A stretch of 64,000 nucleotides of DNA from Squalus acanthias (Eukaryota): NCBI GenBank assembly GCA_030390025.1, contig CM059431.1, positions 127,970,001 to 128,034,000 on the forward strand. The letters run 5' to 3'. The notes under the pieces are model-generated. The model had not been told where the DNA came from. It was given only the letters and a program-made list of their open reading frames with translations, and did no database searches. Of this stretch, positions 13,493-64,000 are shown piece by piece (positions within the stretch are counted from its first letter, which is position 1; every line of letters begins with the position of its first letter). The position numbers were made by a program, and so were the translations under genes.

Positions 13493-13504
13493 CTACCAGT
13501 GGAT

Positions 13505-22125: not shown

Positions 22126-24010
22126 GGAAACATAGAAGATAGGAGCAGGAGTAGGCCATTCGGCCCCTCGAGCCTGCTCCGCCATTTAATGAGATCATGG
22201 CTGATCATTTAAATTCAGTACCCTGTCCCTGCTTTCTCCCCATATCCCTTGATCCCTTTAGCCTTAAGAAATATATCTAACTCCTTCTTGAATATATTTA
22301 ATGAATTGGCCTCAACTGCCTTTTGTGGTAGAGAATTCCACAGGTTCACCACTCTCTGGGTGAAGAAATTCCTCCTCATCTCTGTCCTAAATGGCTTACC
22401 CCTTATCTTTAGACTGTGACCCCTGGTTCTGGACTCCTCCGCCATCGGGAACATCCTTCCTGCATCTAGTCTGTCTAGTCCTGTTAGAATTTTATAAGTT
22501 TCAGTGAGATCCCCTCTCATTCTTCTAAACTCCAGCGAATATAAGCCTAATCGACCCAATCTCTCCTCATACGTCATTCTTGCCATCCCAGGTATCAGTC
22601 TGGTGAATCTTCACTGCACTCCCTCCATGGCAAGAACATCCTTCCTCAGGTAAGGTGACCAAAACTGCACAAAATACTCAAGGTGTGGTCTCACCAAAGC
22701 CCTGTACAACTGTAGCAAGACATCCTTGCTCCTGTACTCGAATCCTCTCGCTATGAAGGCCAACATACCATTTGCCTTCTTAACCGCCTGCTGCACCTGC
22801 ATGCTTACCTTCAGCGACTGGTGCACAAGGACACCCAGGTCTCGTTGCACTTCCCCTTCTACCAATCTATTGCTGTTCAGATAATAATCTGCCTTCCTGT
22901 TTTTGCCACCAAAGTGGATAACCTCGCATTTATCCACATTATACTGCATCTGCCATGCATCTGCCCAATCACCCAACCTGTCCAAATCATACTGGAGTTT
23001 CTCGGCATCCTCCTCACTGCACACACGCCCACCCAGTTTGTGTCGTCTGCAAACTTGGAGATATTACATTTAGTTCCCTCATCTAGATCATTAATATATA
23101 TTGTGAATAACTGGGGTCCTGGCACCGATCCCTGCGGGACCCCACTAGTCACTGCCTGCCACTCGGAAAAAGACCCGTTTATTCCAACTCTTTGCTTCCT
23201 GTCTGCCAACCAGTTCTCTATCCAAGTCTGTACCTTACCCCCAACCCCATGTGCTTTAACTTTACACGCTAATCTCTTATGCGGGACCTTATCGAAAGCC
23301 TTCTGAAAGTCCAAATACACCACATCCACTGGTTCTCCCTTATCTATTCTACCAGTTACATCCTCAAAAAATTCCAGTAGATTAGTCAAGCACGATTTAC
23401 CTTTTGTAAATCCATGTTGACTTTGTCCGATCCTGTCACTGTTTTCCAAGTGCTCTGCTATTACATCTTTTATAATGGACTCTTGCATTTTCCCGACTAC
23501 CGATGTCAGGCTTACCGGTCTATAATTCCCCGTTTTCTCTCTACCACCTTTTTTAAATAGTGGGGTTACATTAGCTACCCTCCAATCCATGGGAACTGTG
23601 CCAGAATCTATAGAATTTTGGAAGATGATCAGCAATGCATCTACTATTTTTCGGGCCACTTCCTTAAGTACCCTCGGATGTAGATTATCAGGCCCTGGGG
23701 ATTTATCGGCCTTCAGTCCCGTCAATTTCCCTAGCACCATTTCCTTACAAATACTGATTTCATTCAGTTCCTCCCTCTCATTAGACCCTATGTTCCCCGA
23801 CATCTCTGGGGGGTTATTTTTGACCTCCTTTGTGAAGACAGAACCAAAGTTTGTATTTAATTGGTCAGCCATTTCTTTGTTCCCCATTATAAATTCCCCT
23901 GATTCTGACTGCAAGGGACCTACGCTTGACTTCACCGATCTTTTTCTCTTCATATATCTATAGAAGCTTTTACAGTCAGTTTTTATGTTCCCTGAAAGCT
24001 TACTCTCATA
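22126..24010 (-). mobile_element. CR1 LINE, 5'-truncated
   Basis: ORFs 22877-23953, 22611-23024, 22215-22586 with RT motifs. Confidence 0.95.
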
Positions 24011-25042
24011 CCTTTATAAAAAAGATTTACAAGAATGGTTCCAGTGATGAGGGACTTCAGTTATGTGGATAGACTGGAGAAGCTGGGTTTGTTCTCCTTA
24101 GAGCACAGAAGGTTGAGAGGAGATTTGATGGAGGTGTTCAAAATCATGAGGGGTCTAGACAGAGTAGATAGAGAGAAACTGTTCCCATTGGCGGAAGGGT
24201 CGAGAACCAGAGGACACAGATTTAATGTGATTGGCAGAGGAACCAAAGGCAACATGAGGAAAAACTTTTTTACGCAGTGACTAGTTAGGATCTGGGATGC
24301 ACTGCCTGAGAGGGTGGTGGAGGCAGATTCAATCGTGGCTTTTGAAAGGGAATTGGATAAGTACCTGAAGGAAAAAAATTTGCAGGGCTACGGGGAAAGG
24401 GCGGGGAGTGGAACTAGCTGAAGTGCTCTTGCAGAGACCCAGCACGGGCTCGACGGGCTGAATGGCCTCCTTCAGTGCTGTAACCATTCTATGATTCTAT
24501 ATTAGGAAATGTTGCTTTGTCAGAGGTGCTATCTTTTAGATAAGAGATTAAATTGAATTCTGCTCCTATGGTTCAACTGAACATTAAAGATCCCATTGCA
24601 CTATTCAAAGAAGTGCCCTCGTCAACATTCCTCCCTCACTCAGTGCAAACTGTTCAATTATTTTATCAATTTGCAGAATTTTGGTGGGCACAAATTAGCT
24701 GATACATTTGCCTAAATAACAACAGTCACTGCACTTGAAAGTAATGTATTGTGATGAAAATTGTTGAGACATTTCTGAGATACATAATAAGACACTATAT
24801 AAAGGCAAAGATTTCCTTTCTTCCATCCTTCCTTCCTCTCTAGCTTCAGTTTTTTTTAACAGGCAGAATGCACTCTTCAAATCGCCATTTAGTTTTTACC
24901 TGCTGAGGGAATTCACCTCATTTAATCATCAACTCTTGACGAGAAAACAAATTAAATGTCTCAAATCCTCCCTTAAAATAATGGACAAAGGAAATTCGTA
25001 CAAATGTTTTAAGTATTCATATACTAATATTCAAACATCTTA

Positions 25043-28879: not shown

Positions 28880-29329
28880 ATTCCCATCATCTCAAACTAA
28901 ACTAAATGAAAAAACAGAAAGCTTGTATATTCCTTTTATCCATGGAGATTCACCACTAACAACTTTGAAAATTTTCTGCAAAGGCAATAGACATGTGAGG
29001 CGTGAAATTGGGTATCGCCCCTTTTGGGGCGCTAAATTTTGAAATATTGAAAATTTAGCGCCAGGCGCTAAGGATTCTGAACTTCTAGTAAATTGGGTGT
29101 GAGCGCCCCAGGAAAGAAGTGGGGAGCTAAATCAAGCTCTAATGACCTCAGTGGGGCGCTACAGGGGCGTTAGCCGCTGAGCGCTAATGAATTTCAGGCG
29201 CAATGCATTCAGCTATGATCCTTCACATTGGTTCCTTCCAGCTCTTAAAGGGGAGGTTGCATCATTGTGCAGATGCTCATTTTCATCATTGCTGGCTTTG
29301 AGGTGACCTGCGAGCAAGTGAATTCCCTG

Positions 29330-31224
29330 ATGGCTATGGCTGTTCCCTCTCCCAGGGAGAAAGTTCGTCGGTTCACAGATGTGGCATTGGAGGCATTGGT
29401 GGCAGGAGTGGAGCGAAGGAGGCCAATGCTGTTCCCGGCCACTGGAAGGAGGCCATCGCCTCAGGTGTTCAGGGCAATGTGGAGGGAAGTGGCCCAGGAG
29501 GTCTCGGCCAGTAGTGTGGTGGAACGCAGCCTGACACAGTGTCGCAAGAAATTCAACGACTTCAGTCGGGTGGTCAGGGTGAGTACATGCCTCAACAGCT
29601 CCTACATACCAGCATCTGAACCTCAGTCTGTGCACACTGCACAAACAACCACACCCCCACCACTCACCCACCAAATATCTTCACCTACTCAAACTCACAT
29701 CCACATCTCATGCCTTGCCTACAATCACAGCTATTCAGTGACAGCAGGCATATCTCCCAAACACATAGCTGGACTCTGACTCAAACACATTTGTTTCTCT
29801 TGCAGGCCAAGATGGCCCACAATAGGAGGGAGCAGCAGAGAACAGGCGGGGGTGATGCACAGCTCCAGCAGCTCTCAGACCTTGAGGACGAGTGCAGTGA
29901 TTCATTGGGCAATCAGGTGGTGGACGCCGTGGCTGTCAGTGACGTCGACCCCCTTGGGAGCAACAAGGGTATGTTCATCCCCTCTCCTCTCATCCCACTT
30001 CCCCCTCTCACCACAAACCTTTCTCACTTTCCACCGCCTGAGAACGTCTGCATTCCTTGCTCCATTCCTGCCCCCCTGCCTTAACGTGACTCTTGTGCCT
30101 TTATGCTTTCAGATAATGAGCAACCAGATGACCAGCCTATCCCTGAGACCCCCACTGAGAGTAAGGAAGGAGAAGAGGAGGAGGAGCAAAGCACCATGTC
30201 ACTGCATGTCTCACCTGCAGGCACCACCTCAGATACTGGCACTACGCGATCTTTAGAGGCAAGTTTAGGAGAGGGGTCTGCACTGGTTTATGCACCGGGG
30301 ACGAGCGGGTTGCAGCAAGGAGAGGAGGAAAGGGCAGCTCGGGAGCCAGCTCCCCAGAGGGCGAGTTCGCACGTGGGTTCTGCTGCACAGGACTCAGATG
30401 AGGACCCAATGGGGAGGCGTTCACAAGAAGGGTGATGGCCATGCACACTGAGATGATAGGTGAAATGGCAAGGGTGCCTGAGAGCCTCTCAGCAATGGTA
30501 AGGAACATGGAGGAGTCTGCCTCCAATATTGCACAGAGCTCTGCGCACACCATGGAGCCCATCATTTACACTGTGCAGAGGATAGTGGACTCCCAGAGAG
30601 ACCGTGCGGATCCAGACCTCATGACGCGTGTCATGGGCGACGTGGCAGCTTCCATTGCAGCACAGGTGGAAGCGATGCAATGTCTTTGTGCTGTAATGCA
30701 GTCAATGGTTGCTGCCATCGAGTCTCAGACTGCTCTCATGCAGTCTCAGCTTGATGTCACAAAAGATCTGTCTGCTGCTATTGTTACTGGGTCCACCACA
30801 GTCCACCAGGGATCTCAAGGTGTCGCAGCAGGCCAGCAATCTGTGCTCCAGCAGATTGGGTAGGGATGCTGAGGTTCTGCCCTGGGGGAGTGGGTTAGTG
30901 GAGCAGGAACCTGCTGTCCTCTCTCAGGATGACAGCATTCCTGATCCCACCACTGCCACTCTGCCATTGCCCTTGTTGCTGCCTGTCATCCAGCCAGCCC
31001 AGACTGCTGCCGCCCAGCCTGAGGTGGTGCAGTCTACAGCCGGGCCTTCCAGGCACAGAGCTGGTCGAGGGCGTCCTGCAAGGCCATCTGTAGTCTCTGG
31101 CACCGACACTCAGCAGCCTTTCACCAGCCTTGCTGCAGCCTCTGGGGAGACACTACGTAGGAGCACTAGATTAGGAAAGGGGACTATAAAGAGGGCAAGT
31201 AAGGGTTTGCACAAAGGTGATTAG
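29330..31224 (+). pseudogene. Myb/SANT-like DNA-binding protein, 3 exons (29330-29578, 29806-29968, 30113-31224)
   Basis: RRFTDVALEALVAGVERRRPMLFP..W.EVA..V....RSLTQCRKKFND; GT-AG introns conserved in copies B and C. Confidence 0.85.
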
Positions 31225-31386
31225 TCAATATTGTTGTATATATGTGGTTAATGGTTTTTGATAAATTTATTACTGGAATGTTGCAGATTTGGTGCTGTAT
31301 CTCATTTCAGTTCTGGGGTGTGGTGTGGAATCACAAAGTGATGGAATGATGGCGATGTGCTCAGCAACCGGAAAGAGGACTCGAAG

Positions 31387-33063
31387 TCACTGGAAACAAC
31401 GTCTGATGAGGCGATCATGGACCGACCTTGCAGAATGCCGATTGAGTGGCTGCCTCCTCCGTCACTGCTGTTCGTTCTCCTGTTCCTCTTGCTCCTCGGC
31501 CTCCTCCTCCTGAGGTGGTGGAGTTATGCCTGGTGGCAATGGCTGCGCCCTCATAATGGCCAAGTTGTGCAGCATGCAGCAGACGACGACGAAAAGGGAC
31601 ACCCACTCAGCCGAGCACTGGAGGGCTCCTCCCGAGAGGTCAAGGCAGCAGAACCATTGCTTGAGCACCCCGATGATCTGCTCGATGATGTTCCTGGTGG
31701 CAGCATGGCTGTCATTATATGAGTGCTGGCTAGGAGTGTTGGGGTTGCAGAGGGGAGTCATGAGCCAGGTGGAGAACAGATAGCCCTTGTCTCCCAGTAG
31801 CCAACTGCAAGCTTGGTGTGGTGGCTGGAACAGAGCTGGTACACCGGTCTGGCACAGGATGAAGGCATCATGGCTGCTGCCAGGATAGCGAGCATTGACG
31901 TTCAGGATTCACTGTGTGTGGTCGCACACCAACTGCACATTAAGTGAGTGGTAGCCTTTGCGGTTATGGAATACCTCAGGATTGTTATGAGGTGCCCGCA
32001 AAGTGATGTGGGTGCAGTCAATGGCACCCTGCATCCTGGCAAAGCCACATGCACGCTGGCGTTGCTCTCTCTGGTCATGGGAAAAGAAATGTAGTCCCTT
32101 CTCCTTCTGTACAGAGCATCTGTGACCTCGCGGATGGAGCAATGGATGGCAAACTGGGAGATGTTGGAGATGTCTCCTGTCGCACAATAGAATGATCCTT
32201 GTGCATGAAACACAAAAAGTTAGCATGCAGGTACAGCAAGTAATCAAAAAGGCAATTGGAATGTTGGCCTTTATTTCAATGGGGTTGGAGTATAAAAACA
32301 GGGAAATCCTGCTACAACTGTACAGGGTATTGGTGAGACCACACCTTGAGTACTGTGTACAGTTTTGGTCTCCTAATTTAAGGAAGGATATACTTGCATT
32401 GGAGGCAGTTCAGAGACGATTCAGTAGGTTAATTCCAGAGATGAGGGGGTTGACTTATGAGGAAGGTTTGAGCAGGCTGGGCCTATACTCATTGGAATTT
32501 AGAAGAATGAGAGGTGATCTTATTGAAACACATAAGATACTGAGGGGGCTCGACAAGGTAGATGCAGAGAGGATGTTTCCCCTCGTGGGGAAATCTGGAA
32601 CGCGGGGGAACAGTTTTAGAATAAAGGGTCGCCCTTTTAGAACTGAGATGAGGAGGAATTTCTTCTCTCAGAGGGTCGTAAATCTGTGGAATTCTCTGCC
32701 CCAGAGAGCTGTGGAGGCTGGGTCATTAAATACATTTAAGGTGGAGATAGACAGATAATTGCAAGATAAGGGAGTGAAGGGTTATGGGGAGCGGGCGGGA
32801 AGTGGCTTTGAGCCCAAGATCAGCCATGTTCTTATGTTCTTATGATCCACTGGCATAGAAATTGAGGGTGACGGTGACCTTGACTGCCACTGAGAGAGCC
32901 GTGGTTGTCCTGATCTGAGGCTCGAAGTCTTGTTGCAGGAGGTGACAGAGTTCTGTGACCATGTCCTTGCTGAAGCGGAGCCTTCTAACACACAGTGAAA
33001 TTCATGTAGGAGATCTGCTGCCGGAATACCGAGGGTGAGGTCCAGTTCCAGTACAGCCCCCAT
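31387..33063 (-). pseudogene. Harbinger DDE transposase interrupted by CR1
   Basis: MGAVL start; GAIDCTH, NRKGYHSLNVQLVCD, TRNIIEQIIGVLK, CCMLHNL. Confidence 0.9.
32199..32841 (+). mobile_element. CR1 3' fragment
   Basis: ORF 32192-32758; TSD ATGATCC at 32192-32198 and 32842-32848. Confidence 0.92.
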
Positions 33064-37599: not shown

Positions 37600-39822
37600 A
37601 TAAGAACATAAGAAATAGGAGCAGGAGTTGGCCTTTTGGCCCTTTGAGCCTGCTCTGCCATTCAATAAAATCATGGCTCATCTTCTACCTCATCTCCACT
37701 TTCCTGCACTATCCCCATATCCCTTGATTACTTTAATATTCAAAAATCTATCAATCTCTATCTTGAATATACTCAACGACTGAGCCTCCACAGTCCTTTG
37801 GGGTAGAGAATTCCAAAGATTCACCCCCCTCTGAGTGAAGAAATTTCTTCTCATCTCAGTCCTAAATGGCCGACCGCTTATTCTGAGACTGTGACCCCTG
37901 GTTCTAGACTCCCCAGCCAGGGGAAACATCCTCCCTGCATCTACCCTGTCAAGCCCTGTAAGAATTTTGTATGTTTCAATGAGATCACCTCTCATTCTTC
38001 TAAACTCTAGAGAATATAGGCCCAGTCTACTCAATCTCTCCTCATAGGACAATCCCCCATCCCAGGAACCAGTCTGGTGAACCTTTGTTGCACTCCCTCT
38101 ATGGCAAGTATATCCTTCCTTAGGTAAGGAGACCAAAACTGTACACAATATTCCAGGTGTGGTCTCACCAGGGCCCTTATAATTGCAGTAAGAAGTCTTT
38201 ACTCTTATTCTCAAATCCTCTTGTAATAAAGGCCAACATACCATTTGCTTTCCTAATTGCTTGCTGTACCTGCATGTTAACTTTCAATGATTTGTGTACA
38301 AGGACACTCAGGTCCCTCTGAACATCAACATTTCCCAATCTCTCACCATTTAAAAAATACTCTGCTTTTCTAGTTTTCCTACCAAAGTGGATATCTTCAC
38401 ATTTCTCCACATTATATTCCATTTGCCATGTTCTTGCCCACTCACTTAGCCTGTCTATATCCCCTTGAAGCCTCCTTGCATCCTCCTCACAACTTACATT
38501 CCAACCCAGCTTTGTATCATCAGCAAACTTGGATATAATACATTTGATCCCCTCATCCAAATCATTGATGTAGATTGTGAATAGCTGAGGCCCAAGCACT
38601 GATCCTTGCGGTACCCCACTTGTTACAGCCTGCCAACCCGAAAAGGACCCATTTATTCCTACTCTCTGTTTTCTGTCCGTTAACCAATCCTCAATCCATG
38701 CTAGTATAATACCCCCAACCCATGAGCCCTAATTTTGTTTAATAACCTCTTGTATGGCACCTTATCGAATGCCTTCTGAAAATCCAAATACACCACATCT
38801 ACTGGTTCCCTCTTATCTATTCTACTAGTTACAACCTCAAAAAATTATAACAGATTTGTCAAGCACGATTTCCCTTTCATAAATCCGTGTTGACTCTGTC
38901 CAATCCTATTATTATTTTCTAAGTGCCCTGTTACCACGTCCTTAATTTTCCCTACTACTGATGTCAGGCTAACTGGTCTGTAGTTCCCCGTTTTCTCTCT
39001 CCCTCCTTTCTTAAATAGTGGGGTTACATTTGCTCCCTTCCAATCCACAAGAACATTTTGGAAAATGACAACCAATGCATCCACTGTCTCTATAGCCAAC
39101 TCTTTCAAAACCCTAGGATGTAGTCCATCAGGTTCAGGGGATTTATTGGCTTTCAGTCCCATTAATTTCTCCAGTACTACTTTTTTACTAATACTAATTT
39201 CTTTCAGTTCCTCATTCTCGCTAGACCCTTGGAACCTCACTATTTCCGGGAAGTCTTTTGCATCTTCTTCCGTGAAGACAGACTCAAAGTATTTGTTTAA
39301 TTTCTCAGCCATTTCCTTATTCCCCATTATAAGTTCTCCTGTCTCAGCCTGTAAGGGACCCACATTTACTTTCACTAATCTTTTCCTTTTTACATAGCTA
39401 TAGAAGCTTTTACATTCTGTTTTTATGTCTCTCGCTAGTTTACTCTCATATTTTATTCTCCCTTTCTTTATCAATTTCTTGGTCCTCCTTTGCTGAATTC
39501 TAAAATCCTCCCAATCCTCAGGCTTACTACTCTTTTAGGCAGCATGATAAGCCTCTTCCTTTGATGTAATACTATCTTTAACTTCTCTTGTTAGCCACGG
39601 TTGGACCACTTTTCCAGTGGGGTTTTTGTGCCTTAAAGGAATGTATATTTGTTGTAAATTATGTATTAATTCTTTAAATGCTCACCATTGCTCGTCCACT
39701 CTCATACCTTTTAATGTAGTTTCCCAATCTACCTTAGCCAACTCACCCCTCATACCTACGTAGTTTGCATTGTTTAGATTTAAGACCCTAGTTTCGGATT
39801 TAACTAAATCACTTTCAAACTC
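37600..39822 (-). mobile_element. CR1 LINE, 5'-truncated
   Basis: RT ORFs 38177-38599, 38845-39474; (CTTATGTT)n tail. Confidence 0.95.
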
Positions 39823-40735
39823 AAAATGCAGAGGTTTTCCTCAATCGCAAAGGCTTCCACTCTCTCAACATCCAGTTGGTTTGCGACCATAGACAGCGCA
39901 TCCTCGCCGTGAATGCCCGCTATCCTGGCAGCTGCCACGATGCATTCATCCTGCGCCAGACTGGTGTCCCAGCAATTTTCCAACCACCGCATCAAGCTCG
40001 CGACTGGCTCCTCGGGGACAAGGGTTATCCACTCTGCACCTGACTGATGACACTGCTCTGTAACCCCAACACTCCTGATGAGCTCGCATACAATGAGAGC
40101 CATAGTGCCACTAGGAACCTCATTGAACAGCGTGCTGAAGCAACGGTTCCAGTATCTTGACCACTCTGGAGGAGCCCTGCAGTACTCCCCCGATCGAGTA
40201 TTGGTTTTCATTGTTGTGTGCTGCATGCTGCACAACCTCCCCATTCTGAGGACCCAGCCATTGCCACCAGGGATTGGTGGACCACATCAGGAGGAGGAAG
40301 AGGGAGAGGAGGAGGAGAAGGATAAAGAGGAGGATGAAGAGGAGGATGAGCAGCAACAATGTGGGAGGGAGGTGCTCAATGTTGCTTCTGCACTGGCCGT
40401 TCGTGAATGCCCGATAAGACACCGCTTCTGATGAATGACAGATAAACTAGCTTTTGGGATGAACAAGCACATCATTACAGTCATCCCACAGCCCCAATTA
40501 CCGGGCAAAGCTCCAATGAGTAAAATGAGCAAAGTTGTAACATTTCAATAAAAAAATGTACTTTTTGTGAACAACTGTGTCTTATTAAGCACAACGAATA
40601 ACAAACAAATACAACAATTCATTAACAAATACAACGGGTTCTTATCACATCGAGATAAGTCTTAACAAAGTGAACAATATATTGACATACACATCCAATT
40701 TTGGGACAAACATTCCCCCATTTGTTAGAGCAGTT

Positions 40736-43060
40736 TTAGTTATTCGCCCTTCGAGAATGATCTCCCTCCCCTTCGCACTTCCCCCCTTCCCACCCTACTG
40801 CTCCTCCATAATGTGGCCCCAGTGGCTGCAGCAAGGCTGGCGGAAGGCTGCTGAATGTCAGATCCAGAGACTGCAGATGGCCTTGCAGGACGCCCTCGAC
40901 CAGCTCTGGACCTGGAGGGCTCGGCTGCAGACTGCACCAACTCTGCATGGGCGGCAGCAGTCTGGGCTGGCTGGGTTACAGGCTGCAGCAAGTGCAATGG
41001 CGGAGTGGCAATGGTGGGAGCAGGAATGCTGTCATCATGAGAGAGTTGAGAGGTCGCACAACACCAGGTTATAGTCCAACAGTTTTATTTTAAATCACAA
41101 GCTTTCGGAGTTAAAACTCCTTCGTCGGGTGAAGTGAGGAGATACAGAATCGTCAAAGCATATATAGATAGAGAACAAAGCATGTGTAACTTACAATTGC
41201 AGACAACTGAATTCAATCATCCTGACTGTTTATCTGCCGAGGTGTGATAAAGTTAATCAGGTCAGCCAGGAAGGTACCACATCAAAGACATGCTTTGTTC
41301 TCTATCTATATATGCTTTGACGATTCTGTATCTCCTCACTTCACCCGACGAAGGAGTTTTAACTCCGAAAGCTTGTGATTTAAAATAAAACTGTTGGACT
41401 ATAACCTGGTGTTGTGCGACCTCTCAATTTTGTCCACCCCAGTCCAACACCGGCATCTCCGCATCATGAGAGAGGGCAGCACCTTCCTGCTCGACCGACA
41501 CACTGCTGCTCCCCCGGGGCAGTACCTCAGCATCCGGAGCAGATTGCTGGCCTGCTGCGGCACTGTGAGATCCCTGGTAGATTGTGGGCGACCCAGCGAG
41601 GATGGTAGCAGTCAGTGCTTGCGTGACATCAATCTGAGACTGCATGCGAGCAGCCTGAGACTGGATGGCACCAGCCAATGACTCAATTCCAGCACTAAGC
41701 CATTGCGTTGCCTTGGCCTGTGCTGCAATAGATGCTGCTACCTCACCCATTACACGCGGCATGGGGTCTGGGTCCCCACGGTCTCTCTGCAATTCAACCA
41801 TCCTCTGCAATGAGGCAAGGATGGGTTCAAGGGTTTGCGCACAGATGATAGCTGTGCTGGCGGTGGACTCCTCCATGCTCCTAGCCAGTGCATCCATGCT
41901 GTCGGTCACCCTAACCATTGCACCCCTGAGTTCGGTATGCATGCTCATCGCCTGAGTATTCATCGCCACAATATCGAGGTCCTCATCCGAGTCCTGTGCA
42001 GCAGAACTTGTGCGCGCACTCACTCTCTGGGGAGATGGCCGCTGAGCTTCCCTTTCCCCATGGCGTTGCTGCAGCCCGCTGGGTCCCGCAGCTTCACCCA
42101 CATCAGATCCAAATTTCCTGCTCCCCTCCAGTGACCGCATGGCCCCAGTATCGGATGTCTCACCCTTGGGAGACACAAGCAGTGAGTCTCCGGCTTGGTG
42201 TTCCTCCTCCTCACCCGCATCGCTTCCACTGGGTGGCTGAGGGACAGGCTGGTCAGATGGTGTCTCATTATCTGAAAGCAAGAAGGTACAAGATTGGCTT
42301 TAACGTGAGGGCAGGGGGGCAGGAAGGGAGTAAGGAATGGAGAGAGTATAGTTAGATGGTATGTGGGAAAGACTGGTGTTGTGAGGGGGAGGTGGTATGA
42401 GAGAGGAGATAAAGATGATGAACATACCGTTGCTGTCCCCAAGGGGGTCGACCTCTCCAAGTACCACAGCGCCCATGACATGACTGGCGATGAGTCTGTG
42501 AACTCACTCCTCCAGCTGTGTGAGGGGGTGCAGCTCCGCCTGACCTCCTCCCGTGCATTGTTGCTCCCTCCGATTATGTGAAAGCTTGGCCTGCAAGAAA
42601 AAGAACAGCATGTGAGTGTGCAGCCATATTTTTTGGCAGATGTGCCTACCATAGCTGAATAGCCGTTCATGTCTGCAAGGTATGGGACGTGGATGTGACT
42701 TTTATTAGATGGGCATAGTTGTTGGATGAGTGTTTGGGATTTGGGAATTTACACCGTCTGTGCACAGAGTGAGGTTGAGATGGTGGGATGTAGAGGGATT
42801 TCAAGCATCTACTCACCCTGACCACCCGAGTGAGGTCGTTGAGCTTCTTGCGGCACTGCATGTAACGTCCTTTGGACCAGGCTCCTGGATGAAACATGCT
42901 GGGCAACCTCCCTCCACACCCTTGTAAACTCCCCGGGCAATGGCCTCCTACCAGTGTCTGGAAACAGCACTGCCCGTCGACGTTCCACAGCACCAATCAG
43001 AGCCACCAATGCCTGGTCGCTAAACTGACGAGCTCTCTTCTTGGGCCTCTGAGTAGCCAT
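40736..43060 (-). pseudogene. Three-exon Myb/SANT-like gene of copy B
   Basis: MATQRPKKRARQFSDQALVALIGAVERRRAVLFP..WREVA..QCRKKLND; exon 3 homologous to copy A. Confidence 0.85.
41046..41467 (+). mobile_element. Young ORF-less Penelope terminal-repeat insertion with inverted arms
   Basis: ~140-bp perfect inverted repeat; 3' tail ..GCATCAT; CATCATGAGAGAG duplicated at 41033-41045 and 41462-41474. Confidence 0.9.
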
Positions 43061-44240
43061 GATAATCTTGACTGCAGATTTACACCTCCTTGTAGGCGAG
43101 GTCAAATGCAGCAATGAGCAGGGTGAGGCTGTGCAGCATGATGGACCCTCCCTTTAAGAACTGGAAGGCGCCAGTCTGTCTGAGTACCAAGTAATTGACA
43201 TCGCCTCAGCTTGTGTAGTGCTCTGAGGTAGCGCCCCGTTCCCCGATGTTAGCGCCCTAAGACAGGTGTGTGGTGCTTGATTTAGCACTCAAATCAACTC
43301 TAGGGGCGTTGGAGATTAATTTCCCGGTCACCGCCGATAATTTGTGCCGGGCGCTAAATTTTACGCCCGTCCGATATTAGCGTCCCAAAATGGGCAATAC
43401 CGAATTTCACTGGAAGCGCCCCAAGAAGAAGGCAGGGCGCTGCTGGAAGTGCCCCGCCTCCCTCTTGGGGCGCTGCGAGTGAATATCACGGCGTTGCGGC
43501 ACATCGCGCCGCGGTACTGCAGGCCTTCCTCCCCTTATTAAAGGGGAGGGGCCTAGCGCAGCGTGACCCGGGGACCAGCTGAGCCGCCAGGGATTGGAGT
43601 GCCGGCAAAAGAGCCCGGCACTCAAGAGAAGTGCCGGGCTCACGGAGCACAGCCAGCACTGCTCTGAATTTTGCGGGAGGCGTTAGCAGTGCCGTGCCCG
43701 GGTGCTAGTTGCTTTGCACCCCGTTAGTGCCCTCTTTGGGCGCTAACGGGAGGCACAAATCAACCAAATTTTTCCCCCTATGACTGTATGGCACCAAGTT
43801 TTTGGTACAAATATTTTCTTTCAATAACCTATAGAACCTTCCAAAAAGCTTTCAACACACCAGGACAAAGGTCTAGTAGTTTCCAAGATAAGCCATTTTT
43901 GCCTGGTGTACTCCAATTCCTTGTCTTTCTCACAAACTCTTGCTGAGCTCACTTGAGTTCTGTTGGATGCACGCCACTCATCCAATTATATTTACCCCAT
44001 TCACTAGAACAAAAAGATGTGTAGTTTACATCTTACGCAGTTCTTCACCCATTCTGTTCGACTGTTATGTTACCAATATAATGCTGCACAGACATGAATC
44101 TGGCACAGCACCAAAATGGTGCTATATTAAATGCTCATCCAATTTTAAGAGATTGTATTTGCCAAATCCTAGTGAAACAGGCATCTGAATCTGTATTCAG
44201 ATTGTATGGACCCTCCCATAACACCCAAAGCTGACACAAT

Positions 44241-49481: not shown

Positions 49482-52400
49482 TTTTTTTTATATTAGTTCA
49501 TGGGATGTGGGCATCACTGGCAAGGCCATGCATTTATTGCCCATCCCTAATTGCCCTTGAGAAGGTGGTGGTGAGCTGCCTTCTTGAACCGCTGCAGTCC
49601 GTGTGGTGAAGGTACTCCCACAGTGCTGTTAGGGAGGGAGTTCCAAGATTTTGACCCAGCGACGATGAAGGAACGCCGATATACTTCCAAGTCAGAATGG
49701 TGTGTGACTTGTAGGTTAACTTGGAGGTGCTGGTGTTCCCATGCGCCTGCTGCCCTTGTCCTTCTAGGTGGAAGAGGTCGCAGGTTTGGGAGGTGCTGCT
49801 GAAGAAGCCTTGGCAAGTTGCTGCAGTGCATCTTGTAGATGGTACACACTGCAGCAACGGTACGCCGGTGGTGGAGGGAGTGAATGTTTAAGGTGGTGGA
49901 TGGGGTGCCAATCAAGCGGCCTGCTTGGTTCTGGATGTTGTCGAGCTACTTGAGTGTTGTTGGAGCTGCACTCATCCAGGCAAGTGGAGAGTATTCCATC
50001 ACACTCCTGACTTGTGCCTTTTTGATGGTGGAAAGGCTTTGGGGAGTCAGGAGGTGAGACACTCGCCACAGAATACCCAGCCGCTAACCTGCTCTTGTTG
50101 CCACAATATTTATGTGGCTGGTCCAGTTACGTTTCTGGTCAATGGTGACCCCCAGGATGTTGATGGTGGGGGATTCGGCAATGGTAATGCCGTTGAATGT
50201 CAAGGGGCGGTGGTTAGACTCTCGCTTGTTGGAGATAGTCATTGCCTGACACGTGTGTGGTGCAAATGTTACCTGCCACTTACCTGAACATTGTCCAGGT
50301 CTTGGTGCATGCAGGCACGGACGGCTTCATTATCAGAGGAGTTGTGAATGGCACTGAACACTGTGCAGTCATCAGCGAACATCCACATTTCTGACCTTAT
50401 GTTGGAGGGAAGGTCATTGATGAAGCAGCTGAAGATGGTTGGGCCTAGGACACTGCCCTGAGAAACTACTGCAGCGATGTCCTGGGGCTGTGATGATTCA
50501 CCTTCAACCACCACAACCATCTTCCTTTGTGCTAGGTATGACTCCAGCCAGTGAAGAGTTTTCTCCCCCTGATTCCCATTGACTTCAGTTTTACTGGGGC
50601 TCCTTGATGCCACACCTGGTCAAATGCTGTCTTGATGTCAAGGGCAGTCATTCTCACCTCACCTCTGGAATTCAGCTCCTTTGTCCATGTTTGGACCAAG
50701 GCTGTAATGAGGTCGGGAGCCAAGTGGTCTTGGCGGAACCTAAACTGGGCATCAGTGAGCAGGTTATTGGTGAATAAGTGCCACTTGATAGCACTGTCGA
50801 TGGCACCTTCCATCACTTTGCCGATGATTGAGAGTAGTCTGATGGGTCGGTAATTGGCCGGATTGGATTTGTCCTGCTTTTTGTGGACTGGACATACCTG
50901 GGTAGTTTTCCACTTTGTTAGATAGATGCCAATGTTGTAGCTGTATTGGAACAGCTTGGCTAGATGCACGGCTAGTTCTGGAGCACAAGTCTTTAGCACA
51001 ACAGCCGGAATGTTGTCGGGGCCAATAGCCTTTGCTGTATCCAGTGCGCTCAGCCATTTCTTGATATCTCATGGAGTGAATCAAATTGGCTGAAGATTGG
51101 CTTCTGTGATGGTAGGAACCACAGGAGTAGGCCGATATGGATCATCTACTCGGCACTTCTGGCTGAAGATGGTTGCAAACGCTTCAGTCTTGTCTTTTGC
51201 ACTCATGTGCTGGGCTCCACCATCATTGAGGATGGGAATATTCATGGAGCCTCCTCCTCCCGTTAGTTGTTTAATGTTCCACCACCATTCACGACTGGAT
51301 GTGGCAGGACTTCAGAGCTTTGATCTGATCCGTTGATTGTGGGATCGCTCAGCCCTGTCTATATCATGCTGCTTCCGCTTTTTAGCATGCATGTTGTCCT
51401 GTGTTGCAGCTTCCCCAGGTTGGCACCTCATTTTTAGGTATGCCTGGTGCTGCTCCTGGCATGCTCTTCTACACACCTTATTGAACCAGGGTTGGTCCCG
51501 TGGCTTGATGGTAAAGGTAGAATGAGGGATATGCCAGGCCATGAGGTTACAGATTGTGGTGGAATACAATTCTGCTGCTGCTGATGGCCCACAGCGCCTC
51601 ATGGATGCCCAGTTTTGAGCTGCTAGATCTGTTCTGAATCTATCCCATTGCCACACAACATGATCGATGGTGTCCTCAGTGTGAAGACGGGACTTCGTCC
51701 CCACAATGACTGTGCGGTGGTCATGGACAGATGCATCATCGACAGGTAGATTGGTGAGGACGAGGTCAAATAGGTTTTGCCCTTGTGTTGGTTCTCTCAC
51801 CACCTGTCGCAGGCCCAGCTTGGCAGCTATGTCCTTCAGGACTCGGCCAGCTCAGTCAGTAGTGCTGCTACTGAGCCACTCTTGGTGATGGACATTGAAG
51901 TCCCCCACCCAGAGAACATTCTGTGCCCTTTGCTACTCTCAGTGCTTCTTCCAAGTGGTGTTCAACATGGAGGAGTACTGATTCAGCAGCTGAGCGAGGG
52001 CGGTAGGTGGTAATCAGCAGGAGGTTTCCTTGCCCATGCTTGACCTGAAGCCATGAGACTTCATGGGGTCCGGAGTCAATGTTGATGACTCCCAGGGCCA
52101 CTCCTTCCCGACTGTATACCACTGTGCCGCCACCCCTGTTGGGTTTGTCCTGCTGGTGGGACAGGACATACCCAGGGATGGTGATGGAGGAGTTTGGGAC
52201 ATTGGCTGAAAGGTATGATCCTATGAGTATGACTATGTCAGGCTGTTGCTTGATTAGTCTGTGGGACAGCTCTCCCAATTTTGGCACAAGTCCCCAGATG
52301 TTGGTGAGGAGGACTGTGCAGGATCGACTGGGTTGGGTGTGCCATTGTTGTGTCCGTAGCCAGTGCCGAGGTCGATGCCGGGTGATCCGTCCAGTTTTAT

Positions 52401-56012: not shown

Positions 56013-59000
56013 TGTAATGAACTAGGCATCTACAGTATCTATTCCACTAGCGACAACGCTAGTAGTCGTGAGAAAGGCTTCTGTACAAAACTTTTGATCA
56101 ACAAGCAATATATTGATATGTGTATCGATACGGCGGACTGCTCTATATGAGTAAGGACACATATGAGAGTAAGTTTAATCAAGTACCACTTACAAAGAGC
56201 TAGAGTTAAAAACCTACTCCAGAGAAATCCTAGAGACATGTGGACAAATGGAATGTACAGTTCAACACAATGGCCAGTCAGTAAAGCTGCCTATTATTGT
56301 AGTGAGCTACAACAACAGGCCAACTCTCATGGGCAAAGACTGGTTGAGAAAGTTACAACTCGACTGGTAAACATCTTCAGTGTAGATGCTTCAAAGAAGC
56401 GACTCGACACAATGCTGAACAAGTATGAAAGCATGTTCACAGACAGTTATGAGAGCATCACTGGGTATGACTCGCATATCTGCATCAAGTCCAGCGCGAA
56501 GACTGTCTATTGTAAGGCAAGGCCGGTCCCCTATGCGTTGAAAAGTCAGGTGGAGGAAGAGCTAGCGAAGCTCAGAGAGAATGGAGTGCTAGTAAAAACT
56601 GACAAAAGAGAATGGGCTACCCTGATTGTGGTAGTGCCCAAAGCAGACAAAACTGTACGCTTGTGCGGTGACTACAAAGTTACTACCAACCAAGCAGTTG
56701 AAAATAAGCAATACCCATTGCTTACATCATAAGATTTGTATGCAGCATTCTCTGGGTCAAAGGTTTTCTCCAAGCTTGACCTGTTGCACGCTTATGCTCA
56801 GCGTGACAAAGAGTGTCAACAGTATCTCACCATCAACACATACAAGAGTCTGTACTCATACACCAAGCTACCGTATGATGTAAAGTCCTCCCTCAAAATC
56901 TTCCAGGCTACGATGGATAAGATTTTGCAAGGAGTTCCAAATTGCTTATGCAATCAAGATGATGTGCTGATCGCAACAAGCAGCGAGGCAGAAAATCTAG
57001 AAGTGTTAGATTTAGTGCTTCAAAGGTTGAATTCCCACAATGTCAAATTGAAAAGGAGCAAAGGTGCTTTTGTGCAGCCCGAGGTTTTGTACCTTGGTCT
57101 GAAAGTTGGTGCAAATGGCTTGTAACCAGTGAAGGAAAAGGTTGATGCTATCATCAATGTTCCAAAGCCACAGAATGTGTCTGAGTTAAGATCTTTCCTT
57201 GGAATGGTCCAGTACTATGCACGTTTTCTTACCTGAGTTAGCGACCAAGTTTGCTCCATTGCACGAGCTCCTCAAGAAGGATGTCCAGTGGAAGTGGACG
57301 AAAGCGCAACAGGAAGCTTACGACGCTTGTAAGAGAAGTCTCTCTAGTGATGCTCTACTTGTGCACTACGACACAAAGCGTGAGCTTAAGTTAGCGTGTG
57401 ATGCTTCCAGCTATGGTGTGGGAGCTGTCATAAGCCTCGTAATGGATGATGGCCAAGACAATCAAATCGCGTTCGCATTTTGTTTGGAATCAATAAATTC
57501 CAACAGTTCCTGATCAGCAGAAAATTTACCCTGATAACCAATCACAAACCACTCCTAGCAATATTGGGGCCCAAATCTGCCATCCTTGCAATGTCCGCAT
57601 CAAGAATGCAACATTGGACAGTGTTGTTGTCACAATATGGCTACACGATTGAATATCACACTACAAAGAGAAACGCAATCGCAGATGTCTTGTCAAGATT
57701 GCCACATGAAGACTCGTGTGTTGGGAGTGAAGGTGCGATTTTCATGCTAGGTGCAGTTGACAAAGACTTTCCCGTGAATGCAACTGAGATTGAAGATGAG
57801 ACTCAAAAGGACTCAGTACTGAAGAGAGTGTATGAAAACACTTTGAGTAGATGGACTGATCAGTGTATGGACACAGAATTGAAACCATTCCATAACTGTT
57901 GTACTGAATTGTCTTGTGAGCAAGGTTGTATCAAATGGGGAAACAGAGTGGTGGTACCTACTTCTTTGAGAGATAGAATTCTGGCCGAACTTCATACTGA
58001 ACATCCAGGGATCGTCAGTATGAAATCAATTGCAAGAAGTTTTGTTTACTGGCTTGGATTGGACAGTGATCTTGACTCACCTGTCAGCAAATGCAGCGTT
58101 TGCCAAAATTGCAGAAACAAACCACCCAAAACTCCACTACAACCCTGGTCATGGCCAAGTAGACCTTTTCAGAGAGTACATGAATACTTCTGTGAGAAAG
58201 CAAATGATTATTTCCTGGTACTTGTAGATAGTCACTCAAAGTGGATTGAAGTGAAACACATGGGTTCAAATCTACAACTAAACGTACCATAGATGAGTTG
58301 AGGTCAATCTTTGCATGTCATGGCTTACCTGAAGAGCTTGTTTCTGACAATGGCCCTCAGTTCCATTCTGTTCTGTTCCAATAATTCATGAAACGGAACA
58401 GTATCAAACACACTCTCGCTCCACCATATCATCTAGCTTCAAACGGAGCAGCCAAAAGGTTAGTCATAATAGTGAAAGAAGCTCTCAAAAAGCAAGTTTT
58501 ACAGGGTTGTTCGGAACTCAGCATGAAGCAACGTTTGGCAAATTTCTTGCTGAAGTACAGAACTACTCCGCACATTACAACTGGACATACCCCAGCAGAG
58601 CTCTTGATGAAGTGGAGATTGAGAACATGATTGAGTCTTGTTCAACTGAATTTGGCCTCAAAACATGAACAGAAACAGTTGAGTCAGAAACGTTATTATG
58701 ACACCAATCAGAAAGAACGCAGTTTCAAACAAAATGAGTGTGTTCGTGTTCTCAGTCCCCCTGGCAAGTCGAGTTCACACAAGTGGGATGTAGGAACCAT
58801 AGTAGAGGTGGAACCAAGAGATATTTGTTTGAAATTGGTGACAAAATCCAAAGGGCTGGATTTTGATACTGGGGCAGGGCTTGGGTCGTTATCCACTTTT
58901 CGTGTTATCCACCCGACTGCAATTGGATGTGGGAGATTGATGCGATTTTCAACTAACTGGGCAATTGAGTTCCAGCATGTGGGAACCCATGACCCAATTA

Positions 59001-59684: not shown

Positions 59685-60874
59685 AACATAAGAACATAAG
59701 AAACAGGAGCAGGAGTAGGCTAATCGGCCTCTCGAGCCTGCTCCGCCATTCAATAAGATCATGGCTGATCCAATCTTGTCCTCAACACCACTTTCCTGCT
59801 CTCTCCCCATACCCCTTGACTCCCTTGTAGTTCAAATGACTGTCAATCTCCGCCTTGAATATATTCAGTGACTCCGCTTCCACAGCTCTCCGGAGTAGAG
59901 AATTCCAAAGATTCACGTCCCTCTGAGAGAAGAAATTCCTTATCATCTCTGTCTTAAATGGGCGACCCCTTATTCTGAACCTATGCCCCCTAGTTCTAGA
60001 TACCCCCACGAGGGGAAACATCCTCTCAGCATCTATCCTGTCAATCCCCCTCAGAAGCTTATATGTTTCAATAAGATCACTTCTCATTCTTCTAAACTCC
60101 AATGAGTATAGGCCCAACCTGCTCAACCTTTCATCATACGTCAACCCCTTCATCCCAGGAATCAACCTAGTGAACCTTCTCTGTACTGCCTCCAATGCAA
60201 GTATATCCTTCCTTAAATATAGAGACCACAACTGTATGCAGTACTCCAGGTGCGGTCGTCACCAGCGCCCTGTAAAGTTGCATCAAAACCTACCTAGTTT
60301 TATACTTCATACCCCTTGCAATAAAGGCCAACATTCCATTAGCCTTCCTAATTACTTGCTGTACCTGCATGCTAAGGTTTTGTGTTTCATGTACTAGGAT
60401 CCCAGATCCCTTTGTACCGCAGCATTTTGTAGTCTCACTCCATTTAAATAATAATTTGCTTTTTCATTCTTCCTTCCAAAGTGGATAACCTCACATTTTC
60501 CCACATTATACCCCATCTGCCAATTTTTGCCCACTCACTTAACCTATCTATATCCCTTTGCAGACTCTTTGTGTCCTCCTCACAACTTGCTAACCCACCT
60601 ATCTTTGTATCATCAGCAAATTTGGCTACAGTACACTCGGTCCCTTCATCCAAGTCATTAATATAGATTGTAAATAGTTGAGGCCCCAGCGCTGATCCCT
60701 GTGGCACCCCACTAGTTACTGGTTGCCAACCGGAAAATGACCCATTTATCCCGACTCTCTGTTTTCTGTTAGTTAGCCAATCCCCTATCCATGCCAAAAT
60801 ATTACCCCCAACCCCATGCGCTCTTATCTTGTGCAGTAACCTTTTATGTGGCGCCTTATCGAATGCCTTCTGGA
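59685..60874 (-). mobile_element. CR1 LINE, 5'-truncated
   Basis: RT ORFs 59782-60231, 60444-60797; possible TSD ATTTAGAA. Confidence 0.92.
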
Positions 60875-60927
60875 ATGCCTCTGTAGTTCATTTAGAAGAA
60901 AAAATGCCAGGAGTTTTTGTTATGTGG

Positions 60928-62631
60928 TGTAAGGGTTTTCGGCGTGCTTGTATCACAGACGGTGCTGGTGCGCGGTTAGGCCTTCGTTGCCTAATACTAT
61001 TGCTTGCTCTGGTCTCCGGCCAGCCTTGTTGCAATAAGCACCTGTGAGTGGTTCGACCCACTCGCCCTTACGGTTCTAACAATGGACTTAGGTGCGAGAG
61101 CAGTAATGCAGAGAAAAACTCAAATAGACCCGGTTGAATAGTACAAAATGGAAATCTTTATTGCATAGCGTCCAAAATCATGAAGTACATGTCATAGGCG
61201 CAAATTAACGAGAGTACAAGTATACATACATTCATAAAGCTTGGTCTATGGTAATGAAGAACGCACGGCACATCGTAAAAAGGGGAACACATTATACTTT
61301 ATCCTTAATAAAACCACCCTCCCCTATCAATACCTACACTACATCTAGATTTGTAGGATCGGGAAACATGCTCACCACTCATGATACTTCGGAGAATTTT
61401 AAAGTGAGGCACTCGGCTCGTTTCGCTGCAGCGCCTGACTGTCACGTGTTTGGAGGGGTCTCTGTACCCCACTTGTTTATCTTCGCTGCTGCGACAAGCA
61501 GGCCGGGCTCCCCGTTGTCATGAAGAACTCGACAGAACTCAGGCCCGGCTGTAGAACTCAAAGAAAAGTCTTCCTGTACCGACACCAGTTGTCGGTAGAA
61601 TTCAAAGAAGATTCTTTGACCGGTTCGTGCAATAACCTGTAGAGTTCAAGAAGTGGGTCTTATATATTCGGCCGCGGTCGGGGTTTACTGACCGCGGCGG
61701 CACGTGGATTCTTCTTCTTTTCTTGTTATTTCGTCTTGTCTTGTTGGGCCTTCGGGTCCAGACACCGTTTACCGACTCTCGGGATGGTGCACCCGGTCAC
61801 TTGCCTTCGTCGAGGCGGCTCGTTCCGATTGAGCTCCACCCAACATTCGAATAACCATCCAGTGCGGCTAAAAGTTCAGAGTCAACAGAGTCCAGAGAAA
61901 CACAGCAGACTGCTCGTCCAGCAGAGCGATACCCGAGGATCAGAATAGGAGAATAAGAGTTCAGCCCGAGTCAAGAGTCAGCAGAGATAAGAGAGCGATG
62001 GACATTTGTTCACTATAGTTATAGTGCCGTGTTCCCTTATCTCCCGCCCAAATCTTAATGTTTGTCCTTTGTGAAATATTGGTGCTCAAAACTCCCAGCA
62101 TGGGGCGATTCTTGTTTTTAACGGGTTTCGGTAGCACCTGAAACTGGCCAACTACCCGTTAATGTTTTCTCCATTGTTGAACCGGCTGGGAGCCTCCCTG
62201 GCTGGGTTTTGGGGGCCCCCGAATACTTGTTTAATCACCTGAGAATGGCTCTCTCAGTGTAGAGCCGTGGGGGTATTTGTGTATTGATGTGTCTGGATGG
62301 GCCTTCAATTGCCCAGTACAATGGTCCTTACTTGTGCATGGAAAACGATTCCAGCACTCATATCTTTTGCTATTGTCACAAATGCAAACAGGTTGCATCC
62401 AGTCTTTATCAGTGCTTATCGAGCATGATCCCGTCTTATATTGAAATGTTTATTCGAACGCCATCTTGTCTGCCCACTGTAATTCTGGAAGCTTCTGCCA
62501 CGATGCGCGGCGGCCATTTTACAGGCTTCTGTGTCCTTTTTAATCATGACAGCATTTCGTTTAAATAAACTGATCAAACGAATCTGCTTCTCTCTTGTTA
62601 TTTTGAATCGCGACAATTGCAAAACTTTACA
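60928..62631 (-). mobile_element. 1704-bp 3' LTR of an endogenous retrovirus
   Basis: TGTAA..TTACA inverted ends; upstream purine tract AACAGGAGGGAC; TATATAA at ~61660-61666; AATAAA at ~61157-61162. Confidence 0.8.
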
Positions 62632-63025
62632 GTCCCTCCTGTTGATGCGAATAACTCTGCTGATCGTATCAATTAAATGTGGTGGTGAGCAAAATTATCC
62701 CGATTCTCCACATCCAAACACTCCCTTAACTTACTATCTATGGTCTCCATGCCGTCCTCATTTCCCAGGGAAATTACATTGTTTAGACTTGGACAAACCG
62801 TAGGCAGTATTGCCTTTAAACTTACATTGCGTATACGCCATCCTGGTGCAACAGGCCGATGCCTCTCGCACCACCTGTATATGCATGTTTTTATTATACA
62901 AGGAAAAATAATCAAGACAACTCTTTTAAAATTACAAAGTTCCAAACTTAGTTACACATATTCATTACTAACAATCAATTACGAAAACACACATGGTAAA
63001 AATGGAACGGCGTCATCCTGGCCGT

Positions 63026-63726
63026 TTACGCACCACTTTCTTCGTTCACGCGCATGTAGCGTTCTCTCCATTCCCCTGTGTTCTCCTGCTTTGTGAGGCG
63101 TTTGCCTCTTTTGCAGTGCACGACCAATAGGTACACTACAATTATAACTTGGCACACTACCAAAATGTGGGAGGCTATCCTGATCCATGAAGGAACTTCA
63201 ATATTAATGAACAGATCCCACCACGGTGGGATTACTATGTCCAAAGTTTCTGTCCCTATCTCGACAGTCTTTTGTTCCAGGGTGTAAAAATGTTTTTGTG
63301 ATACCGCGACGGCTTTCAAAAGCTTGGTGAGGTGTTCAGGGAGAGGGGGAATGATGTATCCGAAATGCGCGACGAATCGCTGCAAGTCGGTGAAATTCTC
63401 TTTTACTGTTAGATGAACAGTGGATGGTTCAGGGATCGGGACAATTCGCTGCTGTGCCACTTCAACTTCAGCCCTGGGTGTAAAACAGAAACTGCTGTCA
63501 CTCACCGGACACCGGCTGTGGTTTGCATGCTGGTAGTTTTGCGCTGCAGTGGTAACACAATATGTTCCACCCCCTATGTAGGCCACCTGCGGAGGCACAT
63601 GATCTTGTGTCATTGCTTCCATGGTGCAATTCATGGGCTTTGCGCCAGCCGTTCTGAACCCGCATTGTGGTGTTAAAAAGGCATTCAAGTGCTGGGGACA
63701 CAGTATGATGTGTGCTGCCCGGCCAC
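63026..63726 (-). CDS. env: C-terminal part of retroviral Env (foamy/loki-like, F-type fusion protein)
   Basis: Uninterrupted ~232 codons: Cys-rich ectodomain, N-glyc sequons NCT/NHS/NFT, heptad, WW region, TM helix, basic tail; precedes PPT+LTR. Confidence 0.75.
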
Positions 63727-64000
63727 TGTAGAATTCGCAATTATCGCGATTTGATTAATAAGGAGAAAACACAAAGTTTCGTTCAAACAGCTTTTTATTT
63801 CAGCAGAATGCTGTCAGGTTTAAATTGGACACAAGCAGCCTGTAAAATGGCCGCCGCACCTCGTGACAGAACATTCTAGACTTTTCAACAGGCAGACAAG
63901 ATGGCGTTCCATTAAACATTCTTGCAAGATCGATGACGATTCAGCACAGTGAAGATAATACACGAGACATTATGGGTTCACAGTATAAACATCGATACTG
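63727..64000 (+). mobile_element. Start of a related LTR inserted antisense into env
   Basis: TGTAGAATTCGCAATTATCGCG.. is the reverse-complement homolog of LTR starts at 62631 and 28370. Confidence 0.85.

Follow-up and report, generated by a model that had tools for sequence, protein, structure and literature searches.

The 64,000-nucleotide window of the Squalus acanthias genome analysed here (contig CM059431.1) holds near its end, on the minus strand, an interrupted envelope gene (env), an untranslated stretch, a purine tract and a long terminal repeat (LTR) that runs from TG to CA and contains promoter and poly(A) signals. This order of parts is that of an LTR retroelement with an env, and the locus is a real but broken 3' end of an element of the endogenous retrovirus (ERV) type, whose envelope protein (Env) belongs to a little-described family from sharks, a skate and frogs and is predicted to be of the F type. 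The coordinates of the parts are collected in Table 1.

Table 1. Parts of the retroviral element and related LTR copies, in window coordinates (CpG o/e, observed/expected CpG ratio; LINE, long interspersed nuclear element).
Feature	Position	Strand	Remarks
env 3' fragment, 232 codons (63724-63029) plus stop	63026..63726	-	C-terminal half of the fusion subunit, predicted F-type class I Env; 5' side broken at 63726/63727
Cys-rich beta domain, AY-x-G-x-G-x-YC and C..FCF-x-P motifs conserved	63413..63592	-	homolog motifs, predicted model
Predicted membrane-proximal heptad helix, model residues 130-162	63239..63337	-	predicted model
Predicted transmembrane helix, then a tail of ~30 residues	63122..63178	-	hydrophobic 19-mer, mean hydropathy 2.64
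3' untranslated stretch, 394 nt, env stop to LTR start	62632..63025	-	
Short polypurine tract (8 purines), then 2-nt spacer AC before the LTR's TG	62632..62640	-	orthoretrovirus-like, not foamy GGG/TG
3' LTR, 1704 nt, TGTAA...TTACA	60928..62631	-	CpG o/e 0.88 vs 0.44 for the whole window
Candidate TATA box TATATAA, LTR position 966	61660..61666	-	
Candidate poly(A) signal AATAAA, LTR position 1470	61157..61162	-	
Start of nested related LTR, opposite orientation, interrupts env, runs off the window	63727..64000	+	CpG o/e 1.11 (274 nt)
Further copy of this LTR family, 5' 646 nt only, 89% identity	27729..28374	-	beside LINE DNA, 3' side truncated; not part of the provirus

The open frame that contains the env remnant spans 63754-63026 on the minus strand and amounts to 242 amino acids from stop to stop. 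The cysteine spacing LCPQ..PQCG..NCTMEA..QVAYIGGGTYCV, the long helix, the hydrophobic 19-mer and the short tail that an initial annotation of this DNA had described are all present in it, and no CX6CC motif occurs in the frame. The same annotation spoke of an intact 3' half of env, which is not what we found: the homologs align only from 63724 downwards, a related LTR cuts in at 63727, and the first nine "residues" of the 242-residue frame are LTR sequence and not env. What remains is about 30% of an Env whose full length, judged from the homologs, would be 720-780 amino acids. It has lost the cleavage site along with the fusion peptide and the first heptad, whereas the homologs P0003, P0007, P0010 and P0014 have an R-x-x-R site followed by both. 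Because the signal peptide, cleavage site and fusion peptide have been severed from the locus, it likely makes no working fusion protein today. Two contigs of run X12 depart from the window sequence at exactly 63726 and then run on as env-like sequence when read by eye, and other copies are therefore uninterrupted at this point. The env pieces among the contigs listed differ from the window copy at 6-15% of sites, a figure that mixes diversity within the family with decay.

The interrupting LTR begins with TG at 63727, and up to 63920 it corresponds, in inverted orientation, to the initial ~195 nt of a related LTR, matching the first bases of the 3' LTR in 149 of 197 columns (76%) and the copy near 28 kb in 155 of 194 columns (80%); beyond ~63920 it is unlike both. 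The env of one family member has thus been hit by the integration of another, and the locus records this event. Since the related LTR enters at 63727 in the reverse direction, the DNA past 64000 opens with a second, nested element and not with the element's own pol, which the initial annotation had proposed to recover beyond 64000. Three related LTR starts in the window point to a dispersed multi-copy family, as do the many variant contigs across env and LTR in all four runs examined, and near-identical DNA appears, among the matches listed, in 20 runs from eight studies labelled with seven organisms. None of the runs listed is recorded as RNA, and run X12 may be. The summed contig depth at 63808-63918 was ~3-4.5 times that of the matching part of the 3' LTR in four runs, and the family of the nested LTR may for this reason be more abundant than that of the 3' LTR.

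The length of 1704 bp first given for the 3' LTR stands. Two further copies in the window, starting at 28374 and 63727, share the register of its 5' end at 62631 and so confirm it. For the 3' end, at 60928, the only grounds are the terminal inverted repeat and the poly(A) signal, as a second complete copy was not seen in the window. Should the TATA box (LTR position 966) and the AATAAA (1470) both be functional, the R region would be ~500 nt long, where the corresponding spacing in foamy records is 150-220 nt; a weaker TATAAT at LTR position 1336 would yield the usual R length. Within the LTR, 61400-62300 is a length-variable region in which the contigs show many skips, and the 3' flank consists of 52 nt of other DNA followed by a LINE cut at 60875. 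The untranslated stretch, put earlier at ~390 nt, measures 394 nt. No accessory gene was found between env and LTR, as had been stated: there is no sense open reading frame (ORF) with an ATG longer than 55 amino acids from env to the end of the LTR, a length that 73% of 500 shuffles reach, and six ORFs from the untranslated stretch and LTR have no Pfam match above cut-off. A short accessory gene may have decayed there. No tRNA gene lies in the 64-kb window.

The env frame goes beyond chance. Relatives made up 2 of 471 and 4 of 166 candidates in the first two indexed protein searches, and an exhaustive phmmer search returned 23 proteins at E ≤0.001, of which 20 are Env-like; P0019, P0023 and P0026 were dropped as repeat proteins. 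The family comes from the sharks Pristiophorus, Chiloscyllium, Heterodontus, Heptranchias and Rhincodon, the skate Rhinoraja and the frogs Xenopus and Pelodytes, with the closest homologs in Rhinoraja (77% identity over 121 amino acids) and the sawshark Pristiophorus (64%), a spread that by itself would make a shark or skate the likely host, and its full-length members carry the R-x-x-R site, a fusion-peptide-like stretch and heptads. Chimeric or short models (P0002, P0017 and P0022) were excluded from alignments, and P0003 was used only in alignment A5 and, trimmed, in the tree. In this tree of 23 rows the window Env and the skate protein are joined (100/98) within a clade of seven, and all foamy Envs fall together on one long branch (3.05) outside the family. 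We found no paper describing this Env family, which published supplements may already hold. One member is named "Ig-like domain-containing" in UniRef, and a second has a weak match to antibody heavy chains (best E 0.005). The env frame of a viral record (L075/L076) that we take to be snakehead retrovirus (SnRV)-like, a name based on its length and gene layout, also opens with an Ig-like pattern by eye (V-x-V-x-x-G-x-x-V-x-L-x-C...W...Y-x-C, L075:6131-6500); a three-sequence profile of the Ig segment gave no significant match to the head of this SnRV-like Env.

In order to place the family by fold, we used an AlphaFold model of the full-length homolog P0010 (21 sequences, pLDDT 54) and one of the window fragment (pLDDT 71). 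The P0010 model has 35 PDB matches at E ≤0.001, and those listed are paramyxovirus and pneumovirus F proteins (E 1e-6) and the foamy Env structures 8rm0 (1.8e-4) and 8rm1, in line with the F-type Env that the initial annotation had suggested. By VIA the model gives Z scores of 6-8, with 8rm0 tied for the top (Z 7.7). In a viral library its matches include F-type proteins of many RNA viruses and of baculoviruses, and the Envs of walleye dermal sarcoma virus (WDSV; 1.2e-6) and walleye epidermal hyperplasia virus 1 (WEHV1; 2.3e-6) rank above feline foamy Env (1.1e-3). The window fragment has WEHV1 Env as its top Foldseek match (E 2.7e-3, prob 0.99) and WDSV Env as its fourth, with foamy fragments at 11th and 13th place. 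Its beta domain superposes on the foamy post-fusion chain 8rm1_D 800-851 with Z 5.1 and an rmsd of 2.0 Å over 51 residues, a middling Z at rank 31 amid coiled-coil noise, coiled coils having filled the wide VIA search. The Atlas places the homolog P0007 beside PF00523 and Baculo_F clusters. These models predict that the Env is an F-type class I fusion protein with the paramyxovirus F fold; the window fragment is tied to its F-type homologs by sequence, and by its own fold weakly. The best PDB fold matches of the full-length homolog, paramyxovirus and pneumovirus F (PF00523; 1ZTM, 8TVE, 7LZE), differ from it in being only 8-15% identical and without an hmmscan match, and the window gene, unlike theirs, sits in an LTR element.

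The walleye epsilonretrovirus Envs (L033:5962-9648; BFVD A4GTG3 and Q9WHI8) themselves match F-type models and the family profile. We found no paper stating an F-like fold for an epsilonretrovirus Env, and epsilon Env is left unclassified in 10.1101/2021.11.05.467493 (this and the other papers cited here were available in part, and what we take from them holds for those parts).

Sequence profiles were compared with retrovirus records picked from viral contigs by motif (76 loci, many being unrelated and matched by chance). Five Envs of ~990 amino acids were confirmed by PF03408, the remaining foamy-type records being assigned by gene layout, and hmmsearch was run against 236 ORFs of the first 41 loci, where reversed targets reach 5.4 bits. 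With hhalign the family profile matched the WDSV-like Env at 91.5% and five foamy Envs at 5-79%, with reversed controls at ≤0.6%. The gamma Env reached 5.8% (20 anchor columns) and the delta Env 0.3%, neither having a profile match past the anchor helix; with no CX6CC motif and a gamma match confined to the anchor, the env is not gamma-type, as the initial annotation had said. The foamy transmembrane motif cited there, to which the cysteine spacing was likened, lies in register with the family profile. Viral Envs are reached by broad profiles only: the narrow profile of close relatives (A3) and single sequences reach none, neither the fragment nor its homologs have an hmmscan match to PF03408 or PF00523, and nothing relevant came up when the fragment, P0007 and alignment A2 were compared by sequence with Pfam and the PDB.

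A further sign of lineage is the boundary between purine tract and LTR. The polypurine tract of the initial annotation exists as a purine tract, though a short one of eight purines that ends two bases before the TG, so that the boundary reads GGG-AC/TG in this one decayed copy. GGG/TG was found in 17 of 17 foamy-type records, and GGGTG at this border is reported for every foamy virus and for those foamy-like ERVs of fish that were studied (PMC5210030). All 12 non-foamy records that run from LTR to LTR, and the SnRV-like record, have bases other than the foamy boundary before the TG and, like the window copy, a 2-nt spacer; this spacer is common to all orthoretroviruses examined and does not single out a genus. 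For the WDSV-like record the tract boundary could not be placed. We regard the boundary as a sign, not proof, of a non-foamy lineage.

The structure of the locus, its break point, the family of homologs, the matches by profile and by fold and the boundary motif are observed; the host group, backbone, order of events and mechanism are inferred. We consider it probable, though with considerable reserve, that the locus is the 3' end of a multi-copy ERV-type element with a predicted F-type Env, cut at 63726 by a related LTR in opposite orientation, with a backbone likely to come from an orthoretrovirus akin to the epsilon or snakehead viruses and not from a foamy virus or lokiretrovirus; an epsilon- or SnRV-like backbone is the likeliest, to be held with the same reserve. 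Walleye epsilon Env (WDSV/WEHV), the top structural match of the fragment and the best hhalign match of the family, has in common with it a C..CF-x-P motif, the layout of heptad, tryptophan and anchor and the lack of CX6CC and the gamma-type ISD motif. It differs in an identity of ~20% at best and in a length of 1160-1320 amino acids, compared to 720-780 in the family. Walleye epsilonretroviruses also carry accessory genes after env. From the group of snakehead retrovirus and clade Huo ERVs (PMC4422223, PMC6001957), the SnRV-like record shares the 2-nt spacer and a weak in-register Env alignment, and it differs in a 1134-residue env frame, an ORF after env, a much shorter LTR and the hhalign score given below. 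Epsilon-like, SnRV-like and foamy-like ERVs are all known from cartilaginous fish (PMC4422223, PMC10699275, PMC6001957), the elephant shark having both epsilon-like ERVs and relatives of clade Huo and SnRV (PMC4422223).

Several observations weigh against this reading. The window fragment alone has no Foldseek match under E 1e-3, the TM scores of the fold matches are low (0.1-0.2 by query) and the models are of low confidence. The Atlas placed the fragment nearest rhabdovirus and chuvirus glycoproteins with a low recognition score; we set this likeness aside in view of that score and of the longer homolog P0007, which did not repeat it. With the broad family profiles, hmmsearch puts foamy Env first (27.4 bits, E 1.7e-8) over WDSV-like Env (7.5-12.9 bits), the SnRV-like Env has no significant hhalign match to the family profile (0.7%), and the tree leaves the rows of the WDSV-like and SnRV-like Envs on long, unresolved branches. 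The LTR, at 1704 nt, lies within the foamy range of 1061-1760 nt (15 records) and above the 482-763 nt of the 12 others, although an LTR of more than 1 kb is not exclusive to the foamy group. The combination of shark and frog hosts matches the foamy-like clade of CmiFLERV and XtrFLERV (PMC5512871). No pol, gag, primer-binding site or target-site duplication of the element was seen, its 5' part lying outside the window, and Env is often swapped among retroviral lineages (10.1101/2021.11.23.469661), so that Env cannot fix the backbone. As hmmsearch and hhalign give opposite orders and the tree does not resolve them, the family Env appears by sequence about equally distant from foamy and epsilon Env. 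Within the viral and metagenome contig sets, no related locus with a linked pol and no match to the LTR motif was found, and no long fused protein with the family profile occurred among 7470 candidates of 1295-3695 amino acids, lengths of 734-1294 being outside that search.

An alternative that deserves serious thought, although we believe it unlikely, is a foamy-like ERV (FLERV) of the shark and frog clade whose bel-type accessory genes were lost or never present. Foamy Env ranks first by hmmsearch, its alignment covering precisely the motif cited in the initial annotation, its structure 8rm0 shares the top VIA Z score, the 1.7-kb LTR is foamy-sized, the hosts resemble those of CmiFLERV and XtrFLERV, and ERV-Spuma.0-Sca has been reported from a catshark (PMC10699275). 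The foamy Env gp130 (PF03408; 8RM0/8RM1; PMC11468914) is alike in its F-type core, in the in-register cysteine spacing and G-x-Y motif (27 bits) and in its association with a long LTR, but the family homologs differ by a shorter N-terminal subunit and by the missing PF03408 match and separate tree branch already described, and a profile built from 17 foamy Envs scores the family at ≤5.0 bits. At the nucleotide level the window element differs in having neither the GGG/TG boundary nor a tas/bel2 region, no accessory ORF being present between env and the end of the 3' LTR. A cartilaginous-fish endogenous foamy virus was reportedly described by Wang, Chen and Cui in 2023.

That the element is a lokiretrovirus, which would be the first from a cartilaginous fish, seems to us very improbable. 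Loki Env is F-like and follows pol in a simple gag-pol-env genome (Wang and Han, PMC7947760), and by eye it has in common with the homologs the first strand of the fusion core and the C..CP..CG..C spacing. However, the five loki Envs in the supplement of that paper (Bsp, Lch, Pma, Xla and Xtr) lack by eye the G-x-G-x-YC motif and the cysteine pair that follows it, and their N-terminal subunit is ~110-120 residues long, compared to ~270-320 in the shark, skate and frog family. Four motif searches of this supplement gave 0 matches, though line breaks and the truncated file may have hidden some; the PF00523 profile of F proteins does not match the fragment or its homologs by hmmscan, although Atlas neighbours of P0007 carry it; and lokiretroviruses were present in 0 of the 6 chondrichthyan genomes screened (PMC7947760). 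The label "foamy/loki-type", as a statement of lineage, is thus not upheld: walleye epsilon Env matches equally well or better, the GGG/TG boundary is absent and the loki Envs, read by eye, are without two of the motifs. With a family that matches foamy and epsilon Env about equally, an F-type Env is no marker of a foamy or loki lineage.

The surroundings of the element bear on its age and on two further explanations. A decayed Gypsy-type pol with reverse transcriptase, RNase H and H2C2 integrase lies at 56151-58700 on the plus strand, with stops and frameshifts. LINE-type reverse transcriptase fragments are found at 11901-13506, 16576-17118, 22880-24013, 38180-39534, 50272-51068 and 60447-60887, and pieces of DDE_Tnp_4 transposase and Myb/SANT genes, presumably the gene pair of PIF/Harbinger transposons, at 3226-3942, 29249-32409 and 40051-43153. 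The CpG o/e is 0.88 in the LTR, 0.66 in env and 1.11 in the nested LTR (over 274 nt), whereas the flanking LINE, the Gypsy pol and the window as a whole have values of 0.39-0.44. The element probably postdates the repeats around it and predates the nested insert, and its low CpG loss suggests a moderate age. The initial annotation had taken the open frame as evidence of a young insertion. In 2000 simulations with substitutions only and no indels, a frame of 232 codons stayed free of stops in 59% at 2% substitution and in 29% at 5%, and openness therefore does not show youth.

A Gypsy/Metaviridae or BEL retrotransposon with a captured F-type fusion gene, as in errantiviruses, would account for the Gypsy-type pol 2 kb away, for the arthropod Baculo_F clusters among the Atlas neighbours of P0007 (0.92; TM 0.58), for the weak Baculo_F match of P0017 (E 0.0011) and for the baculovirus F proteins among the Foldseek matches. 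We think there is very little chance of this. The Gypsy pol was rejected as the partner of env, since it lies on the other strand with LINE DNA between and is far more depleted in CpG (o/e 0.43 compared to 0.88 in the LTR). The named Envs that come closest in profile comparisons belong to retroviruses, and one survey reports no intact ERV of vertebrates with homology to the errantiviruses of invertebrates (10.1101/2023.10.26.564294).

Host selection could also have held the env fragment open as a co-opted piece, an explanation that we rate as extremely improbable. Its 232 codons are free of stops, and gene models of other sharks splice such env pieces into host transcripts: P0002 (Pristiophorus) joins one to a cadherin-related gene and P0017 (Heterodontus) to fbxo15, models that reflect either exonisation or annotation error. 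Yet the window fragment has neither a start nor a signal peptide and is cut by an LTR, a frame of this length commonly stays open at 2-5% decay, and the env family is multi-copy.

On the favoured reading, an epsilon- or snakehead-kind orthoretrovirus with an F-type Env, the homologs suggest that the full protein of ~720-780 residues would be cleaved at the R-x-x-R site. Attachment to the cell would fall to its N-terminal subunit, which may carry an Ig-like head, and the C-terminal subunit would insert the fusion peptide and refold into a six-helix bundle, as is reported for F and foamy Env, with their cleavage, fusion-peptide insertion and six-helix refolding (PMC11468914). What the window preserves of this C-terminal subunit is the beta domain together with the last heptad, the anchor and the tail. 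The virus presumably entered the germ line and multiplied, and a younger element of a related family would then have integrated inside env, likely inactivating this copy.

By itself the locus, with a cut env fragment and pol out of view, adds little. F-like Envs have been published for foamy viruses and lokiretroviruses; whether the ancestor of retroviruses possessed such an Env or gained it later is left open by Wang and Han (PMC7947760). The shark, skate and frog Env family gives new sequences with which these two histories can be tested. More tentatively, and as a possibility that we would not yet call probable, these proteins may form a distinct and hitherto undescribed retroviral Env clade between foamy and walleye epsilon Env, with an F-type core and a possible Ig-like head, carried on orthoretroviral backbones. 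If this is true, the F-type fusogen would be the ancestral retroviral Env, kept in the foamy, loki, epsilon and shark, skate and frog lineages, and the gamma- and beta-type Envs would be later replacements.

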